A DNA stretch of 64,000 bases, from the NCBI GenBank assembly GCA_028704885.1, contig JAQWEN010000001.1, forward strand, positions 523,107 through 587,106, written 5' to 3'. The position numbers and the translations under genes are program-made. Positions 1,422 through 58,170 of the stretch are shown in pieces (position 1 is the first letter of the stretch; each line of letters starts with the position of its first letter). The notes below the pieces were generated by a model. That model was not told where the DNA came from. It saw nothing but the letters and a program-made list of their open reading frames with translations, and made no database searches. This stretch comes from Candidatus Shapirobacteria bacterium. Lineage in GTDB: Bacteria; Patescibacteriota; Microgenomatia; UBA12405.

Positions 1422-4078
1422 TTTTTCAAATATTGACCGGTATAACTTTTAGCAACATTCATAACATCTTGAACTGTACCAGTAGCGACAATTTCACCAC
1501 CTTTGTCTCCACCTTCAGGACCAAGATCGATAATCCAATCTGCATTTTTAATAACATCTAAATTATGTTCTATTAAAACGACTGTATTACCTTTATCAAC
1601 CAATTGACGTAAAACTTTAATTAATTTATCGACATCATAAAAATGAAGACCAGTGGTGGGTTCGTCGAGAATGTAGAGCATTTTGCCGTCAAATTGTTTA
1701 ACTAATTCACGGCTGATTTTAAGACGCTGAGATTCACCGCCAGAAAGAGTATTTGATGGTTGGCCTAATTCTAAATAACCAAGTCCGACATCTTGAATTG
1801 TTTTTAATTTGCGGCTTAATTTAGGTAAATTTTTGAAAAATTCTAGAGCTTCATCGACAGTCATTTTTAAAATTTCGGCAATATTTTTACCTTTATATTC
1901 AACCTCGAGAGTTTCATCTTTAAAACGAGAACCATGACATTCGTCGCAAGTGACATAAAGATCGGGCATAAATTGCATTTCAATTTTAATTTGACCTTGG
2001 CCTTCACAAACTGGACAACGACCATTTTTAACATTGAAAGAAAAACGATTTTTATCAAAACCGCGTAATTTGGCCTCAATAGTTTGAGCCATTAAAACTC
2101 GAATGTCATCAAAAATTTTAGTGTAGGTGGCTGGGTTACTGCGTGGAGTACGACCAACTGGAGATTGATCAACTAATAAAACATCAGAGATATTTTCACA
2201 ACCAGTAATTTTATCGAATTGACCAATGGTTCCATAATAAGCACCAAGAGTGGCTTTACGAACACCACCATACAAAGTGTCATGAATCAAAGTAGATTTA
2301 CCGGAACCAGAAACACCGGTGACACAAATTAATTTGTTGAGAGGAAAATCAACATTAATGTTTTTTAAATTCCATTGATGAGCATTAATAATAGAAATTT
2401 TTGGACTGGTTTTAATATTAACGGGGTTAATTTTAGATTCGATTTTTAATTTACCTGATAAATATTTACCGGTTAAAGATTTTGGATTATTTTTAATTTC
2501 TTCAAAAGTACCTTCGGCGACAATTTCACCACCAGCTTTACCGGCATATGTTCCAAAATCAACGATATGATCGGCATTTTTAATAACATCTTCATCATGT
2601 TCAACAATAACCACGGTGTTACCTAAATCTTTTAATTTTTTAAGAGTGCCGATGAGACGATCATTATCACGAGAATGAAGACCAATGGTTGGTTCATCAA
2701 GAATATACAAAACTCCGGTTAGACCAGTTCCAATTTGACTGGCTAAACGAATTCGCTGAGCTTCACCGCTAGAAAGCGTGCCGGCTTCACGGTCGAGACT
2801 TAAATAATCAAGACCGACGGCTAATAAAAACTCGAGACGAGAAGCTAGTTCTTTTTGAATAGGAATAACAATTTCTTTTTCTTTATCACTTTGCAATATC
2901 GATTCGAGATTATTAATCCAAGCGGATAATTTTTCGATAGGAAATTGGGTGACTTCATAAATTGTTTTTTCTAAGACAGTGATTGATAAAGCTTCAGGGC
3001 TAAGACGGGAACCATGACAAGATGGACACTCTTCTTTAATCATGAAATGTTCCAATTCTTCACGGACAACATCACTTTGAGAAGTGAGATAACGACTTTC
3101 GAGCATTTTAGCTTTCCACTCTGGAAATTGAGTGCGATCGATTTGAAATTTAGATCCTAAACCTTTACATTCAGGACAAGCACCTTCGGGAGAATTAAAA
3201 GAAAATAAACGTGGTTCAATTTCTGGAAGTGAAAGATTACAGATAGGACAGGCATAATCTTCAGAATAAAGAGTATCAGATATTTCTTTTGGTTGATCTG
3301 GAAATGTAAATCCGGGATCTTTAACTTCGGAAGCAATGACTAAACCGTTGGATAATTTCATGGCTTGCTCAACATCATCAATCAAACGATCATAAATGGC
3401 TTTTTCATTTTTAAGAGTGTCTTTACTAATAGAAGTACGATCAATAACAACATCAATGTTATGTTTGTTAGTTTTGGCAATACCAAAATCAGAGTAAAGA
3501 TCAACTAAATGATTGTCAATTCGAATAAATTTATATCCTTGTTTTCTTAAATTTTCAGTAAGTCCATGGAAATCCCCTTTTTTGTCGCGAATCACTGGAG
3601 CTAAAATTAAAAGTCGATAAATATTTAAACCATGAGCTTCAAGACGAGCAATATTTAAAATCTGGGTGACAATCTGTTTACTGGTTTGAGGTGAAACTTC
3701 ACGTCCACAATTTGGACAATGAGGATGACCAATGCGAGCAAATAATAGACGTAAATAATCGTAAATTTCAGTGACAGTGCCAACAGTTGATCGAGGATTA
3801 TGGGAAATAGCTTTTTGATTAATGGCAATTGCTGGAGATAGACCTTCGATTAAGTCAACTTCGGGACGTTTCATGTTGCCTAAAAATTGACGGGCATATG
3901 ACGAAAGAGATTCCATGTAGCGACGCTGACCCTCAGCAAAAAGGGTATCAAAAGCCATACTAGATTTGCCGGAGCCAGAAACACCAGTAAAGACAGTCAT
4001 TTTATTTTTGTCGAATTCGAAAGAAACATTTTTTAGATTGTTTTCTCGAGCTCCTTTTACAATTATTTTATCGATCAT
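1409..4078 (-). CDS. uvrA: Excinuclease ABC subunit A (UvrA)
   Basis: Two ABC ATPase modules (GVSGSGKSS... and GVSGSGKST...). Zn-finger Cys pairs, LSGGE signature. 889 aa. Confidence 0.95.
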   Translation of the reverse strand: MIDKIIVKGARENNLKNVSFEFDKNKMTVFTGVSGSGKSSMAFDTLFAEGQRRYMESLSSYARQFLGNMKRPEVDLIEGLSPAIAINQKAISHNPRSTVGTVTEIYDYLRLLFARIGHPHCPNCGREVSPQTSKQIVTQILNIARLEAHGLNIYRLLILAPVIRDKKGDFHGLTENLRKQGYKFIRIDNHLVDLYSDFGIAKTNKHNIDVVIDRTSISKDTLKNEKAIYDRLIDDVEQAMKLSNGLVIASEVKDPGFTFPDQPKEISDTLYSEDYACPICNLSLPEIEPRLFSFNSPEGACPECKGLGSKFQIDRTQFPEWKAKMLESRYLTSQSDVVREELEHFMIKEECPSCHGSRLSPEALSITVLEKTIYEVTQFPIEKLSAWINNLESILQSDKEKEIVIPIQKELASRLEFLLAVGLDYLSLDREAGTLSSGEAQRIRLASQIGTGLTGVLYILDEPTIGLHSRDNDRLIGTLKKLKDLGNTVVIVEHDEDVIKNADHIVDFGTYAGKAGGEIVAEGTFEEIKNNPKSLTGKYLSGKLKIESKINPVNIKTSPKISIINAHQWNLKNINVDFPLNKLICVTGVSGSGKSTLIHDTLYGGVRKATLGAYYGTIGQFDKITGCENISDVLLVDQSPVGRTPRSNPATYTKIFDDIRVLMAQTIEAKLRGFDKNRFSFNVKNGRCPVCEGQGQIKIEMQFMPDLYVTCDECHGSRFKDETLEVEYKGKNIAEILKMTVDEALEFFKNLPKLSRKLKTIQDVGLGYLELGQPSNTLSGGESQRLKISRELVKQFDGKMLYILDEPTTGLHFYDVDKLIKVLRQLVDKGNTVVLIEHNLDVIKNADWIIDLGPEGGDKGGEIVATGTVQDVMNVAKSYTGQYLKKCSI

Positions 4079-50563: not shown

Positions 50564-50770
50564 TTACTTAGAACCAATGAAGGAAAGTTGGCGGGGATGT
50601 CCAGAAAAAATATAGCTAATTGAAGCTTTACTTTTATTAATTTTAACCAAAACCATATCCCCTTCTTTAATATTAAATTCTTTAATTGATTTAGAAGGAA
50701 TAGTTAGGGCTAAACTATTTCCAGTTTTAATAACTTTTCTTGCTTGAGTCATTTTTTTAAATACCAGCAA
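50564..50770 (-). CDS. AbrB/MazE/SpoVT-type swapped-hairpin DNA-binding protein
   Basis: Motif KVIKTGNSLALTIPSKSIKEFNIKEGDMVLV is a classic AbrB/MazE fold signature. About 62 aa from the internal Met. Confidence 0.6.
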   Translation of the reverse strand: MLVFKKMTQARKVIKTGNSLALTIPSKSIKEFNIKEGDMVLVKINKSKASISYIFSGHPRQLSFIGSK

Positions 50771-51362
50771 TTTCTGAGGAACTACCTATTATAACGATTG
50801 GACAGCTTAAAAAAAAGTCGACAATAAATTGATCTCTTTTTTGTTTGCGCATTTGAAATTCACTTTTATCCATAACCATATAATTAATTTCGTGGCCGCG
50901 AATTTCTTCTTCTTGTTTAACTAAAATACCAACTTCTTTAAGGGAAAACAAATCACCGACAATAATTAAGTCAATACCGTCTTCGTTTCTTTTTTCACCG
51001 ACAGCGAATTTGTAATTATATAAAACTAATTTTATCGGACTTAGAGTTTCATTTTTATGCTGAAGTTTTAAACCAAGTCCAGAATTTTTATTAGCTAATA
51101 TTAAAAGATCGTAAAAAATTGGAGATTGTTTATCAGCCCAGTAATAGAGACGATTACCACGCCATTCTGATTCAATAATTCCAGCTTTTTTTAGATTATC
51201 TAATTCGCGACGAACTGAATTAATTTCCTCTTCAGTCAAACGAACTAATTGACGGACATAATAAATCTCTTTTGGGTTACTAAAAAGAATTGTAATTAAT
51301 TTTAGTCTGGTTTGAGAAACTAATAACTGTTTAAGACTAGTTTGAATTTTCATAAGAAACAC
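50757..51362 (-). CDS. Winged-helix transcriptional regulator with a C-terminal domain resembling a minimal nucleotidyltransferase
   Basis: N-terminal HTH (TRLKLITILFSNPKEIYYVRQLVRLT), C-terminal ..KRNEDGIDLIIVGDL. Overlaps the AbrB-like gene by 14 nt. Confidence 0.45.
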   Translation of the reverse strand: MFLMKIQTSLKQLLVSQTRLKLITILFSNPKEIYYVRQLVRLTEEEINSVRRELDNLKKAGIIESEWRGNRLYYWADKQSPIFYDLLILANKNSGLGLKLQHKNETLSPIKLVLYNYKFAVGEKRNEDGIDLIIVGDLFSLKEVGILVKQEEEIRGHEINYMVMDKSEFQMRKQKRDQFIVDFFLSCPIVIIGSSSEIAGI

Positions 51363-52948: not shown

Positions 52949-53000
52949 CGATTACTAATTGTAGCAAAACAATATGCTATACTGGCGATAGAAACACATA

Positions 53001-53108
53001 ATGAACGAAAATAAATATATTAAAAAAGATTTATTAAGAAGTTTGATTTTAAGCGTGATTTCAATTGGGATTATCATAGTTATTTACTACCTAAAAAATG
53101 GTTATTAG
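53001..53108 (+). CDS. Candidate 35-aa single-TM micropeptide (not in the ORF track)
   Basis: ATG...TAG encoding MNENKYIKKDLLRSLILSVISIGIIIVIYYLKNGY. Weak RBS. Sits in an otherwise empty intergenic region. Confidence 0.2.
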   Translation: MNENKYIKKDLLRSLILSVISIGIIIVIYYLKNGY

Positions 53109-53141
53109 AAATTATTATTTTTATAAGGGGGGTGAAAATTA

Positions 53142-53318
53142 ATGCCAACAATTAAATTTTATAACGTTAAATCACGCAAATCTATCGAAATTGACGTAAG
53201 TAAAGTAGAAAAAGTTATGTTGAAAAACGGTAGACCAGCAGCTCAAACTATTGATCCAGAAACTGGAACCAAAATGTTTAAAATCTTATCAGCCGCTGAT
53301 GCAGCTTTATTGAAATAA
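53142..53318 (+). CDS. 58-aa small basic protein resembling archaeal Sul7d/Cren7 SH3-fold chromatin proteins (not in the ORF track)
   Basis: Strong SD (AAGGGGGGTG) 8 nt upstream of the ATG. Followed by a perfect rho-independent terminator. Sequence MPTIKFYNVKSRKSIEIDVSKVEKVMLKNGRPAAQTIDPETGTKMFKILSAADAALLK aligns by eye with Sso7d ([24 protein letters not shown]...) and Cren7 (...DPETGKYFRHKL). Confidence 0.5.
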   Translation: MPTIKFYNVKSRKSIEIDVSKVEKVMLKNGRPAAQTIDPETGTKMFKILSAADAALLK

Positions 53319-53340: not shown

Positions 53341-53376
53341 AACCCCCCGAAATTTCGGGGGGTATTTGTTTTTATA
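53341..53376 (+). terminator. Rho-independent terminator
   Basis: CCCCCCGAAATTTCGGGGGG perfect GC-rich hairpin followed by TATTTGTTTTT. Confidence 0.85.
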
Positions 53377-53394
53377 GATATTTAAGGCTATAAT
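53366..53394 (+). promoter_or_regulatory. Promoter candidate for RNase P RNA
   Basis: TTGTTT (53366-53371), 17-nt spacer, TATAAT (53389-53394). Lies 4-7 nt upstream of the P1 5' end. Confidence 0.4.
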
Positions 53395-53397
53395 TTA

Positions 53398-53662
53398 GAT
53401 ATCCTAAAGAGATTGAGAGGCTTATCCCGATTTCTAACGAAATCGCGGAAGGAAAGTCCGGACCACAAAAAGCACAGAAGTCCATACGGACCAGGGCGTA
53501 AGCTTTGGGCGCTGCTACAGAGACGAGAAATGTGAAACGCGCATCCTTCTGGTGGAAATCTCAAGATGAAACGTTAATATCTAGCTTTTGAGAGTTTCAG
53601 GTAGAGAGAGTAGATTGATGGCCTCTAAACAGAATCCGGCTTATCAATGTCTTTGGGATATT
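53398..53662 (+). ncRNA. rnpB: RNase P RNA (rnpB), unusually short (~265 nt)
   Basis: Universally conserved P4 halves GGAAAGTCCGGAC (5') and ACAGAATCCGGCTTA (3'). P1 pairing between atatcctaaagagattga (53399-53416) and tcaatgtctttgggatat (53645-53662). Internal GTGAAAC-type P11/P12 junction. Confidence 0.75.
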
Positions 53663-57897: not shown

Positions 57898-58170
57898 TTA
57901 TTTCACCATTTTCTTGATTTTGGTACCTGGAATGTAGCGAGGCATTCTTCGGGCAACAATTTTCTTGGATTCTTTGGTTCCAATAGCTTTGATGGTTTTT
58001 GCTTTGAACATTTTGGTTTTGAAAGTTCCAAAACCAGAAAGTTTAACGGTTTCGCCAGCGGCTAATCCTTTCATTATTTCAGAGAGGAAAGTTTCAACTG
58101 CTTGTTTAGCTGCTTTTTTACTAAGCTTGGCTTTTTGAGAGACTGATTCGATTAAATCTTTTTTAGTCAT
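57898..58170 (-). CDS. hup: DNA-binding protein HU
   Basis: MTKKDLIESVSQKAKLSKKAAKQAVETFLSEI... and RMPRYIPGTK arm residues. 90 aa. Confidence 0.9.
   Translation of the reverse strand: MTKKDLIESVSQKAKLSKKAAKQAVETFLSEIMKGLAAGETVKLSGFGTFKTKMFKAKTIKAIGTKESKKIVARRMPRYIPGTKIKKMVK

Follow-up and report, generated by a model that had tools for sequence, protein, structure and literature searches.

A cysteine-less derivative of the DUF5679 zinc-ribbon family with a predicted Cren7/Sul7d-like fold in a CPR bacterium

The stretch of DNA that was analyzed (64,000 nucleotides; hereafter the window) contains a small gene, here called Q58, on the forward strand immediately ahead of rnpB. The gene and the elements that frame it are as follows.

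53001–53108, + strand: predicted transmembrane mini-ORF of 35 amino acids, directly upstream of Q58 (from the ORF list)
53126–53135, + strand: Shine-Dalgarno-like G-run, aaggggggtg, read directly from the sequence, 6 nt 5′ of the Q58 ATG (53142)
53142–53318, + strand: Q58 coding sequence for 58 amino acids (ATG start, 58 codons, TAA stop ending at 53318), almost certainly a Cys-less derivative of a DUF5679-type zinc ribbon
53342–53373, + strand: intrinsic terminator of Q58, a 9-bp GC-rich hairpin with a T-tract, between Q58 and rnpB

Q58 is a real bacterial gene that is very strongly conserved, far beyond chance. It encodes a protein of 6.4 kDa with a pI of 9.8 and a net charge of +5. The terminator hairpin (53342–53363) starts 24 nt past the stop codon and has a 9-bp stem that includes seven GC pairs; its loop is 4 nt long, and ATTTGTTTTT comes next. 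Its folding energy is −22.1 kcal/mol (z = −4.2), and none of 200 shuffled sequences was equally stable. An SD-like motif precedes the Q58 homologue at all 81 loci compared, and a terminator-like hairpin with a T-run follows it at 64 of them. The gene is under purifying selection; codon differences across 79 loci amount to 16.6 for synonymous and 8.4 for non-synonymous changes. The strong Shine-Dalgarno sequence, ATG, 58 codons and terminator listed in a preliminary description of this DNA are all present, and the translation given there is reproduced exactly. That description also called the gene unannotated, which holds only under the 60-aa ORF cutoff that it used: the 58-aa gene had already been called in a MAG record (NCBI GCA_028685145.1 / JAQUEN010000003.1), where its product has no recorded Pfam match, and close relatives carry the name "hypothetical protein" in public records.

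The upstream mini-ORF is conserved at 35 of the 81 loci (43–91% identity by tblastn) and has no Pfam match. An extended −10-like sequence, tgctatact, lies upstream of it at 52975–52983; this element was read from the letters only and was not flagged by a consensus scan. The mini-ORF and Q58 may share one transcript. Q58 would form its own transcription unit, possibly together with the small membrane protein, with transcription predicted to stop at the strong terminator before rnpB.

Homologues with at least 55% identity to Q58 number 103. The preliminary description had proposed tracing the distribution of the gene, and doing so with the narrow Cys-less alignment A1 placed it in at least 214 GTDB species representatives, a count that is biased to close relatives. 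Throughout the Q58 clade, the genes between SecD and YchF form one syntenic block of 8 kb, and Q58 is the most conserved protein at 60 of 67 syntenic loci, with a median identity of 84% (74% for YchF). Homologues that are 74–81% identical also occur, among unrelated neighbors, in MAGs of 54–57% GC labelled Longilinea and Bacillota. Some fully CPR-syntenic loci bear the titles "uncultured Gammaproteobacteria" or "Methanoperedens," which we did not take as taxonomic evidence. Q58 had no match in NCBIfam or PHROGs; Cys4 relatives (those with all four cysteines) matched only PHROGs families of unknown function or Lar-like zinc ribbons. A tblastn search of 50,697 phage genomes found no match to either Q58 or a Cys4 consensus.

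Profile comparisons place Q58, with near-certainty, in DUF5679 (Pfam PF18930), a widespread zinc-ribbon family. Its members are small CxxC…CxxC zinc-ribbon proteins of unknown function, and we found no experimental work on any of them in the literature searched. Q58 alone scores 14.1 bits (E = 0.052) against PF18930, for which the family cutoff is 27 bits. The model is matched by 28 of 44 close relatives (best E = 4.6e-8) and by 38 of the 40 sequences in a graded alignment (best E = 1.2e-17). When the profile of the CPR family was compared with that of Cys4 DUF5679 in HHalign, the probability was 99.5% (E = 1.9e-22), and a deep profile search passes continuously into canonical proteins of the form YCVKCK...KNGRPA...CPxCGTKMFKIG. 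The K-N-G-R-P-A loop and the G-T-K-M-F-K-I strand of the family are both found in Q58, where they are invariant or nearly so. Four parts of the protein bear on what follows.

53163–53174, + strand: remnant of zinc knuckle 1 (CxxC), codons 8–11, N-V-K-S, at the predicted β1/β2 turn (from HHalign, hmmalign columns, alignment A3 and model strands E3–8/E13–18)
53223–53243, + strand: predicted β3/β4 loop, codons 28–34, K-N-G-R-P-A-A, the most conserved motif of the DUF5679 superfamily
53253–53270, + strand: remnant of zinc knuckle 2 (CPxCGT), codons 38–43, D-P-E-T-G-T, at the predicted β4/β5 turn (from HHalign, hmmalign columns and alignment A3)
53289–53312, + strand: predicted C-terminal amphipathic helix, codons 50–57, S-A-A-D-A-A-L-L (H51–56 in the model; near-invariant columns in the clade)

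The four zinc ligands that define the family (CxxC…CxxC) are absent from Q58. In the alignments with Cys4 DUF5679 (HHalign and hmmalign), N8, S11, D38, and T41 occupy the four ligand columns, N8 and S11 replacing the first two cysteines and D38 and T41 the last two. Alignment A3 contains a graded series of cysteine loss, from Cys4 through Cys3 (CxxE/D), Cys2 (P0088), and Cys1 (P0084) to Cys0. The helix motif is found in 24 of 43 forms with one cysteine or none and in 6 of 87 forms with three or more (Fisher p = 1.6e-9, a value that is not phylogenetically corrected). Within the β3/β4 loop, N29 is invariant and K28, G30, R31, A33, and A34 are invariant or nearly so.

Other database matches were set aside. 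DUF1947 (E = 0.016, 4 of 44 members) is sub-threshold and inconsistent across the family; its fold differs from that predicted for Q58. A hantavirus nucleoprotein (2k48_A) was matched at E = 0.63 by the single sequence and at E = 0.0079 by the profile, over 28 residues only; the structure searches gave no sign that the folds are related, and we took it as a chance match. The PDB held no informative sequence match to Q58. Two deep-profile matches were low-complexity false positives: P0116, a protein of 3129 aa with cadherin-like repeats, and P0194, which has FG-GAP repeats.

The AlphaFold2 model of Q58 (pLDDT 88) has strands at residues 3–8, 13–18, 23–26, 32–37, and 44–48 and a helix at 51–56. 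With high confidence, the predicted fold is a five-stranded SH3-like small barrel with a C-terminal helix, of the Sul7d/Cren7 type. A Foldseek search of the PDB with this model returned Cren7 first (6a2i_A; probability 0.99, TM 0.57) and then Sac7d/Sso7d (for example 1xyi_A; probability 0.94, TM 0.52), with an overall range for these proteins of 0.94–0.99 in probability and 0.5–0.6 in TM. In the model, the former zinc-ligand positions fall at the turns between strands 3–8 and 13–18 and between strands 32–37 and 44–48. A Cys4 relative that has the helix was modeled with the same layout (pLDDT 86.9); it matches Cren7 at TM 0.59–0.60 and also the zinc ribbons of Rpp21 and LysW. Phage zinc ribbons and giant-virus homologues are structural matches at TM 0.6–0.73.

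The preliminary description had likened Q58 to the crenarchaeal chromatin proteins, and much of what it saw is borne out. Its by-eye alignment with the Sul7d N terminus is reproduced by HHalign, its Cren7-like motif exists (DPETGKYFR in Cren7, DPETGTKMFK in Q58), and the SH3-like fold with a C-terminal helix that it proposed agrees with the model and its top PDB matches. Q58 could be a true and specific homologue of Sul7d, Cren7 or both, through common ancestry or gene transfer between Crenarchaeota and bacteria, and the chromatin family would then not be specific to archaea. The HHalign comparison of the CPR profile with Sul7d (probability 68%, score 26.9) lies above every one of 150 column-shuffled profiles (mean 9.9, SD 2.3, maximum 19.5), the Pfam family PF02294 is faintly matched by 4 of the 44 relatives (best E = 0.035), and the Q58 model is 24–28% identical to Cren7 and Sac7d in the Foldseek alignments. 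The DPETG turn and a G-R pair in the β3/β4 loop are common to Q58 and Cren7. Cren7 itself comes from a zinc ribbon with its knuckles at the same turns (PMC5906684).

We nevertheless regard specific homology as quite unlikely. The Sul7d score falls as the profile is broadened, from 26.9 to 18.8, 15.7, and finally 10.3 with the Cys4 profile (probabilities 11.5%, 3.7%, and 0.3%), which is usually the opposite of what true superfamily homology gives. The comparison with Cren7 scores no better than the null, with a probability of 6.6% (score 17.1, 1 of 150 shuffles as high) that drops to 0.5% with a broader profile (score 11.1, 28 of 150). In structure alignments with Cren7 and Sac7d, Cys4 relatives reach an identity of only 12–16%, so the extra likeness seen in the Cys-less form looks like convergence. 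Q58 itself matches neither PF02294 (7kD_DNA_binding; none at E up to 10) nor PF11520 (Cren7), and with E limited to 0.1 none of the 44 relatives matches PF11520 either. Moreover, Sul7 is thought to have arisen from Cren7 inside the Sulfolobaceae (Kaur et al. 2018, PMC5906684), and Sul7d occurs in only a handful of lineages within the Crenarchaeota (Sulfolobus, Acidianus, Metallosphaera) (PMC5906684). By sequence, then, Q58 is not a member of the Sul7d or Cren7 family, and the homology put forward in the preliminary description does not hold in the family sense. That description had named a match to an unrelated, common bacterial family as one result that would count against it; a common family, DUF5679, is indeed what Q58 matches, but its architecture is the same.

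The best explanation of the resemblance is that Cren7 and Sul7 are themselves descendants of type-2 zinc ribbons that lost their zinc (Kaur et al. 2018, PMC5906684). The former knuckles of Cren7 lie at the β1/β2 and β4/β5 turns, and hydrophobic interactions compensate for the metal (PMC5906684); in the set of Cren7 sequences that we compared, cysteines occur only at the termini. Judged from the alignments, Q58 appears to have taken the same route independently. The alignments show the ancestral form to be a type-2 zinc ribbon in which CxxC knuckles at these two turns hold one zinc ion, and in the Q58 lineage all four ligands have given way to N8, S11, D38, and T41. The second knuckle, CPxCGT, has become DPETGT, a sequence of strong intrinsic β-turn propensity known as the chignolin turn. 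The amphipathic C-terminal helix would pack on the sheets so that a hydrophobic core replaces the metal; here the association of helix and cysteine loss is observed and the mechanism is our suggestion. The predicted outcome is a 6.4-kDa basic five-stranded barrel with a helix, in the architecture of Cren7 and Sul7d.

We propose that Q58 is a zinc-independent DUF5679 member of Cren7/Sul7d-like architecture that binds nucleic acid and is likely nucleoid-associated, a reading to which we assign a probability of roughly 0.55. The fold, the pI of 9.8, the K/R-rich tails of relatives, and in-frame fusions to topoisomerase I make nucleic-acid binding the most reasonable function to infer. In 58 metagenomic ORFs (E = 1e-13 to 1e-23), a DUF5679 domain lies in frame on the N-terminal side of TopA, and the fusion ORFs that no contig end truncates have the full length of about 775–890 aa. 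Protamine-like K/R/S tails are found on relatives P0136, P0144, and P0183, P0134 has tandem repeats with KA-rich linkers, and P0142 is fused to sigma-70 region 2. The domain is also frequent in polintoviruses and mavirus-like elements. Most likely the ligand would be dsDNA, with Q58 acting as an abundant, sequence-nonspecific architectural protein of the nucleoid. Type-2 zinc ribbons and Cren7/Sul7 contact their ligands or DNA through the β3–β5 sheet region (PMC5906684); the corresponding surface of Q58 would comprise the β3-β4-β5 sheet, the invariant K-N-G-R loop, and K44/K47. The K-N-G-R-P-A-A loop is thus a candidate DNA-binding loop (compare P-K-G-R-K-G of Cren7).

Several observations run the other way. 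In the TopA fusions the β3/β4 loop reads AKGTPG and similar, versus KNGRPA in free-standing forms, which counts against the DNA-binding reading. Zinc ribbons also bind RNA or proteins, and Rpp21, LysW, and ribosomal proteins are among the matches. The same genome already has an HU gene (57898–58170), which speaks against a nucleoid protein. In a low-confidence HHalign alignment, the two residues with which Sul7d intercalates into DNA, V26 and M29, correspond to N29 and P32 of Q58 and its W24 to M26, so the DNA-kinking mechanism is not obviously conserved.

The gene next door could point to a role with RNA. rnpB lies directly 3′ of Q58 on the same strand at 77 of the 81 loci; its RNA is encoded 90 nt downstream, is short (245 nt) and scores best with the archaeal model. 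Q58 might be an accessory protein of this reduced RNase P RNA or, more generally, a ribosome or translation factor, and its extreme conservation is of the level expected of ribosomal proteins. The best Foldseek E-values of the Cys4 relative are to Rpp21, a zinc-ribbon protein found in archaeal RNase P (6k0a_G, E = 0.054; also 2zae, 1x0t, 2ki7, and 2k3r), but the TM is low (0.37–0.47) and the 58 residues of Q58 leave out the N-terminal helical domain that archaeal Rpp21 carries ahead of its C-terminal zinc ribbon. Because the whole SecD–YchF block is syntenic, the adjacency reflects clade synteny only and carries no specific information. The strong terminator and a separate −10 element (tataat, 53389–53394) divide the two genes, the seven non-syntenic loci have no RNase P RNA near the Q58 homologue, and a reduced RNase P RNA is a general, previously described feature of CPR. 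The fusions involve DNA enzymes and transcription proteins, not RNA-processing proteins. Together these points make an RNA-binding role decidedly improbable.

Loss of the cysteines could instead be the function itself, with Q58 serving mainly as a zinc-sparing (C-minus) stand-in for a zinc-binding DUF5679 paralogue, as in C-minus L31, L33, L36, and S14, and hence in metal homeostasis and not chromatin. Zinc-ribbon proteins controlled by Zur are well known to have lost cysteines repeatedly, reportedly through work by Makarova and colleagues in 2001 and Panina and colleagues in 2003, and the graded Cys-loss series fits such a history. Among distant Cys-less relatives, L088 and L090 are directly upstream of, or overlap, genes for Fur-family regulators, and L086 and L087 lie upstream of a cluster of ArsR/HTH_5, thioredoxin, and ArsP; these neighbors hint at other roles. 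The two Fur cases, however, are closely related sequences, no metalloregulator lies near the gene in the Q58 clade, where the context is fixed, and the 64-kb window holds no second, Cys-bearing DUF5679 copy. As an account of the main role of Q58 this is very unlikely; it would explain the loss of zinc and not the job of the protein, and is compatible with the nucleic-acid-binding proposal.

We give similarly little credence to Q58 as a protein–protein adaptor or carrier with no nucleic-acid role, in the manner of LysW-type zinc ribbons or classical SH3 domains. LysW (3vpb_E) and the FYN SH3 domain are among the structural matches, and Cys4 relatives give sub-threshold matches to Zn_ribbon_LysW. 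LysW is acidic and has a C-terminal carrier tail with glutamate, unlike Q58, which lacks such a tail and is basic (pI 9.8). No biosynthetic operon surrounds Q58, and the fusions and tails of its relatives point to DNA.

Under the nucleic-acid-binding proposal, Q58 would be a candidate chromatin protein of CPR bacteria, in a clade where its gene outconserves YchF; we found nothing on CPR nucleoid proteins in the literature searched. The proposal would also give DUF5679 a first functional hypothesis; this domain is widespread in bacteria, many metagenomic contigs carry it joined to topoisomerase I, and it is frequently found in polintoviruses and giant viruses. A bolder version holds that Microgenomates (CPR) and some Chloroflexi have Cys-less DUF5679 proteins as abundant nucleoid proteins that bind and bend or compact DNA as Cren7/Sul7d do, and that DUF5679 and Cren7/Sul7 share a specific zinc-ribbon ancestor. 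We think this unlikely as a whole; if true, bacteria would possess a counterpart of the "crenarchaeal" 7-kDa type of chromatin protein, and its ancestral form, with zinc bound, would still be widespread among bacteria and eukaryotic viruses. Q58 would represent a second, apparently independent route from zinc ribbon to SH3-like barrel, as proposed for Cren7/Sul7, that arrived at the same DPETG turn. Since intermediates from Cys4 to Cys0 are extant and the turn solution is the same, this route is experimentally tractable. Sso7d-type proteins have found wide use, both as tags for polymerase processivity and as binder scaffolds, and a mesophilic, metal-free analogue could serve likewise.

Among known systems, DUF5679 is closest to Q58: the KNGRPA and GTKMFKI motifs and the predicted strand order are common to both, and the C-terminal helix occurs in some Cys4 members as well (P0197, P0230, P0195). 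Q58 differs in that its helix is near-invariant and lies beyond the reach of the 40-residue Pfam model, and in that it outconserves every neighboring gene at those 60 CPR-clade loci. Cren7 (PF11520; PDB 3KXT, 6A2I) is the best structural match in the PDB and resembles Q58 in size, pI, and charge, in the two turns from which the metal was lost, and in the DPETG and G-R motifs. It has no C-terminal helix and a longer β3/β4 loop, it is crenarchaeal whereas Q58 is bacterial, and the relationship between their sequence profiles is not significant. The DNA-contact residues of Cren7 include K24, W26, L28, K31, and R33. An alignment of the two proteins, weak and without statistical support, pairs K21 of Q58 with K24 of Cren7, V25 with L28, G30-R31 with G32-R33, and E23 with W26; in this alignment the partners of W26 and L28 are not equivalent residues. 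Sul7d (Sso7d/Sac7d; PF02294) is similar in size and charge, and its N-terminal hairpin (tiKFy..k...eVDvSKvkKV) aligns with the Q58 N terminus in HHalign. According to the model, Q58 has the Sul7d order of elements, including the helix, with a hairpin packed on a three-stranded sheet and the C-terminal helix as a cap; its sequence scores stay below all thresholds of that family, and the intercalating residues are not conserved in the low-confidence alignment. Finally, the nucleic-acid-binding type-2 zinc ribbons (TFIIS, the TFIIE-α finger, Rpp21, the ribbons of topoisomerase I) include phage entries named for the TFIIE-α finger or as "zinc ribbon domain protein" (TM 0.63–0.72), and Rpp21 as a match of the Cys4 relative. 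Q58 stands apart from them as a free-standing single domain without metal ligands, not a module of a larger machine, but is predicted to share their two-hairpin and three-stranded-sheet architecture, in which the three-stranded sheet is the ligand surface.

Q58, a 58-residue protein (MPTIKFYNVKSRKSIEIDVSKVEKVMLKNGRPAAQTIDPETGTKMFKILSAADAALLK), is encoded on the plus strand, and the features of the window that bear on it are as follows.

50757–51362, minus strand: conserved hypothetical protein, 201 aa, in the syntenic block
53001–53108, plus strand: 35-aa ORF (MNENKYIKKDLLRSLILSVISIGIIIVIYYLKNGY) directly upstream of Q58, with one predicted transmembrane segment
53126–53135, plus strand: SD-like motif aaggggggtg, read in the sequence
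53142–53318, plus strand: Q58 coding sequence; ATG at 53142, 58 codons, TAA ending at 53318
53342–53363, plus strand: terminator hairpin (9-bp stem, seven GC pairs), then a T-tract
53408–53652, plus strand: RNase P RNA (rnpB), 245 nt, 90 nt downstream of Q58, with its own tataat at 53389–53394
57898–58170, minus strand: HU-family gene, 90 aa (PF00216, E = 1.9e-22), 4.6 kb from Q58

The SD-like motif, start codon, 58 codons and hairpin terminator of the preliminary description were all confirmed in the sequence. The hairpin has a folding energy of −22.1 kcal/mol (z = −4.2), and none of 200 shuffled sequences folded equally well. The gene is real and strongly constrained, as is evident from 103 homologues at ≥55% identity in a collection of 5.8 billion proteins, its occurrence in at least 214 GTDB species representatives, an excess of synonymous over non-synonymous codon differences (16.6 vs 8.4 across 79 Q58 loci), and retention of the SD-like motif in 81/81 loci and of a terminator-like hairpin in 64/81. 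It had been described as unannotated; in fact a 58-aa gene is already called in the public MAG that matches the window, GCA_028685145.1 (contig JAQUEN010000003.1), albeit with no Pfam hit recorded there.

The members of the close Q58 family (75–98% identity) form a single clade, placed by their record titles mainly in Shapirobacteria and Woesebacteria (Microgenomates), and they share a fixed gene order. The minus strand carries SecD, a MazE-like gene, a hypothetical gene, DUF3048 and DUF4446; next, on the plus strand, come the 35-aa membrane mini-ORF, then Q58, then rnpB; the block closes on the minus strand again with genes for an AI-2E transporter, MiaA and YchF. In 60 of 67 loci, Q58 surpasses every other protein of this block in conservation, with a median identity of 84% (YchF, 74%; DUF3048, 64%; MiaA, 54%). 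The 201-aa hypothetical protein has only faint archaeal winged-helix-like matches (HVO_A0114, E = 0.0014; DUF2250, E = 0.0018). The mini-ORF is conserved by tblastn in 35/81 related loci (43–91% identity); it has no Pfam match and is uncalled in the public record. The full block was also seen on contig L071, titled "Candidatus Methanoperedens sp.", and on contigs of many TPA MAGs among L002–L080 titled "uncultured Gammaproteobacteria bacterium"; such titles look like mis-binning or placeholder taxonomy. Q58 copies at 74–81% identity occur in GC-rich MAGs labelled Longilinea (Chloroflexi; GC 0.57) and Bacillota (GC 0.54), on contigs of 54–57% GC (L045, 2803–2976; L046, 3001–3174; L027, 712–885). 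Their neighbors, a ComM/YifB-like gene and a PurL-like gene, are unrelated to the clade synteny, and the copies reflect either extreme constraint across phyla or horizontal transfer.

Searched alone against Pfam, Q58 gave sub-threshold matches to DUF1947 (E = 0.016) and DUF5679 (PF18930; E = 0.052) and no match to Sul7d (PF02294) or Cren7 (PF11520); NCBIfam returned no match. When 44 close relatives were scanned singly, 28 matched DUF5679 (best E = 4.6e-8) and four gave faint PF02294 matches (best E = 0.035). A profile search run exhaustively over 1.84 billion cluster representatives recovered 510 proteins at E ≤ 1e-3, which grade unbroken into canonical DUF5679, a CxxC...CxxC zinc ribbon of the form YCVKCKxKxEIKDxxxVTMKNGRPAxQGxCPxCGTKMFKIG. 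The CPR family (the close, Cys-less Microgenomates relatives of Q58) aligned with Cys4 DUF5679 proteins, which keep all four zinc-ligand cysteines, over 51 columns (HHalign probability 99.5%, E = 1.9e-22); N8, S11, D38 and T41 of Q58 occupy the four cysteine columns. Intermediates retain three cysteines (CxxE/D...CxxC, e.g., P0140 and P0213), two (P0088, C8 and C38) or one (P0084). Judged from the relatives' Pfam matches, the continuous profile search, the HHalign alignment and these intermediates, Q58 is a Cys-less derivative of the DUF5679 zinc ribbon. The literature searched names DUF5679 solely as a domain of unknown function, and reports that it occurs often in polintoviruses and mavirus-like elements, and also in AMEV120, an entomopoxvirus protein.

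Two matches to the Q58 profile were rejected as false positives arising from a DP.TG...LS..DAAL pattern: P0116, a cadherin-like giant protein (3129 aa) in which profile positions 29–57 match the repeats TDPDAGTTLSYSLSGTDAALF in 14 stretches, and P0194, an FG-GAP repeat protein (563 aa). More distant Cys-less relatives (55–66% identity, MKFYNVKTR... type) also come from Patescibacteria. They are found directly upstream of Fur-family genes (L088, 1554–2199, overlapping; L090, 200–855) or of an ArsR/HTH_5, thioredoxin and ArsP cluster (L086, 517–2336; L087, 1157–1999). The relatives in these settings are P0100, P0099 and P0103, and Cys-less forms may be linked to metal regulation.

Homology of Q58 to Sul7d and Cren7, as suggested in the preliminary description, was probed by HHalign profile-profile comparison with column-shuffle nulls, using natural-sequence alignments from database searches (Cren7, n = 65; Sul7d, n = 59).

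Profile-profile comparisons with Sul7d and Cren7
CPR family with Sul7d: score 26.9, probability 68%, N-terminal 39 columns; null mean 9.9, SD 2.3, maximum 19.5; 0/150 shuffles reach the observed score
Broad Cys-less set with Sul7d: score 18.8; null maximum 17.0; 0/150 shuffles reach the observed score
Whole superfamily with Sul7d: score 15.7
Cys4 with Sul7d: score 10.3
CPR family with Cren7: score 17.1, probability 6.6%; 1/150 shuffles as high
Broad Cys-less set with Cren7: score 11.1; 28/150 shuffles as high
Cren7 with Sul7d: score 11.4

The Sul7d signal fades as the profile becomes more diverse and is absent from the zinc-bound relatives. This pattern would be expected from convergence of the Cys-less branch; a signal from family-wide homology would be expected to strengthen, not weaken, with a broader profile. 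The Foldseek identities to Cren7/Sac7d (24–28% for Q58 vs 12–16% for a Cys4 relative) suggest the same reading. With no Pfam match, Cren7 scores at null level and a fading Sul7d signal, these profiles do not demonstrate that Q58 belongs to either family, and the proposed homology was not sustained.

The likeness in fold was borne out by modeling. The AlphaFold2 model of Q58 (44-sequence alignment) is confident (mean pLDDT 88), with predicted strands at residues 3–8, 13–18, 23–26, 32–37 and 44–48 and a helix at 51–56. Foldseek ranked Cren7 first in the PDB (6a2i_A; E = 0.048, probability 0.99, TM 0.57; also 5wwc, 3kxt and others), and the top matches included Sac7d/Sso7d (1xyi_A, probability 0.94, TM 0.52; 1bf4; 1bnz) and a single FYN SH3 entry. 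A type-2 zinc ribbon fits the predicted fold just as well. The Cys4 relative P0197, likewise with a C-terminal helix, is predicted to have the same order of elements (pLDDT 86.9); its best TM-scores are to Cren7 (0.57–0.60) and its best E-values to Rpp21, an archaeal RNase P zinc-ribbon protein, with LysW also matched. Among predicted viral structures, two groups matched the Q58 model better than Cren7 did: Marseillevirus-like proteins (24–37% identity, TM 0.57–0.73) and phage proteins annotated as zinc ribbon/TFIIE-alpha finger (TM 0.63–0.72).

The match to Rpp21 and the position of rnpB 90 nt downstream raise the idea that Q58 is an RNase P cofactor, as does the RNase P RNA itself, for which the top-scoring Rfam model is the archaeal RF00373 (102.4 bits; gathering score 84) and not a bacterial one; RF00373 is also best for the RNAs of L021 (112.9 bits) and L081 (90.7 bits). 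The idea does not hold up, however: the adjacency is part of the block synteny and is absent at seven non-syntenic loci, a terminator and a separate −10 element lie between the two genes, the TM-score to Rpp21 is low, and reduced CPR RNase P RNAs without P12, P13, P14 and P18 were already documented (PMC8172020).

We propose, as a testable hypothesis, that Q58 acts as a sequence-nonspecific, architectural DNA-binding protein, which would contact DNA through its β3–β5 sheet and the invariant K-N-G-R loop. Several features point in this direction. The three-stranded sheet is the usual nucleic-acid surface of the type-2 zinc-ribbon/Cren7/Sul7 architecture (PMC5906684), and Q58 (6.4 kDa, pI 9.8, net charge +5) resembles the family medians of Cren7 (pI 9.9, +7) and Sul7d (pI 9.7, +6). 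Protamine-like K/R/S tails are present on relatives P0136, P0144 and P0183, P0134 carries tandem DUF5679 repeats with KA-rich linkers, and one relative, P0142, is fused to sigma-70 region 2. In P0138, two DUF5679 repeats precede a canonical TopA (topoisomerase I) N-terminus. Similarity to P0138 recruited 58 metagenomic ORFs (a number that is not a prevalence; contigs L091–L149, e.g., the L091 ORF starting near 4000) in which a DUF5679 domain precedes the TopA Toprim domain in the same reading frame (E = 1e-13 to 1e-23 with our Cys4 HMM). Their layout is an N-terminal DUF5679-type zinc ribbon, a K/A/S/T-rich linker and Toprim, those intact at contig ends being full-length (about 775–890 aa); no description of this architecture was found in the literature searched. 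Against a role in DNA binding, the intercalating residues of Sul7d are not conserved in Q58 (the alignment is weak), the β3/β4 loop differs in the TopA-fused domains, RNA or a protein can also be the ligand of a zinc ribbon, distant relatives have Fur/ArsR neighborhoods, and the HU gene shows that the organism also has a standard bacterial nucleoid protein.

Kaur, Iyer, Subramanian and Aravind (Sci Rep 2018; PMC5906684) described Cren7 as a type-2 zinc ribbon no longer able to chelate metal. They located the former knuckles at the β1/β2 and β4/β5 turns, where some crenarchaeal orthologues retain two to four cysteines, and found zinc loss to be accompanied by strengthened hydrophobic contacts and by convergence towards the SH3-like barrel fold; Sul7 is a later derivative of such a metal-free Cren7 (PMC5906684). 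Both are known only from Crenarchaeota and Bathyarchaeota (PMC5906684), and the literature searched yielded no paper connecting them with CPR. Among 50%-identity representatives, the C-terminal helix is tied to cysteine loss: its motif occurs in 24/43 forms with at most one cysteine vs 6/87 with three or more (Fisher p = 1.6e-9, ignoring phylogeny). The ligand replacements of Q58 likewise fall at the β1/β2 and β4/β5 turns, and its second knuckle has changed from CPxCGT to DPETGT; the corresponding turn of Sulfolobus Cren7 reads DPETGK. By inference, the D and T of the Cren7 turn would be residue-by-residue equivalents of the lost cysteines. Q58 is thus most likely a bacterial parallel, in a different family, to the evolutionary route taken by Cren7 and Sul7.
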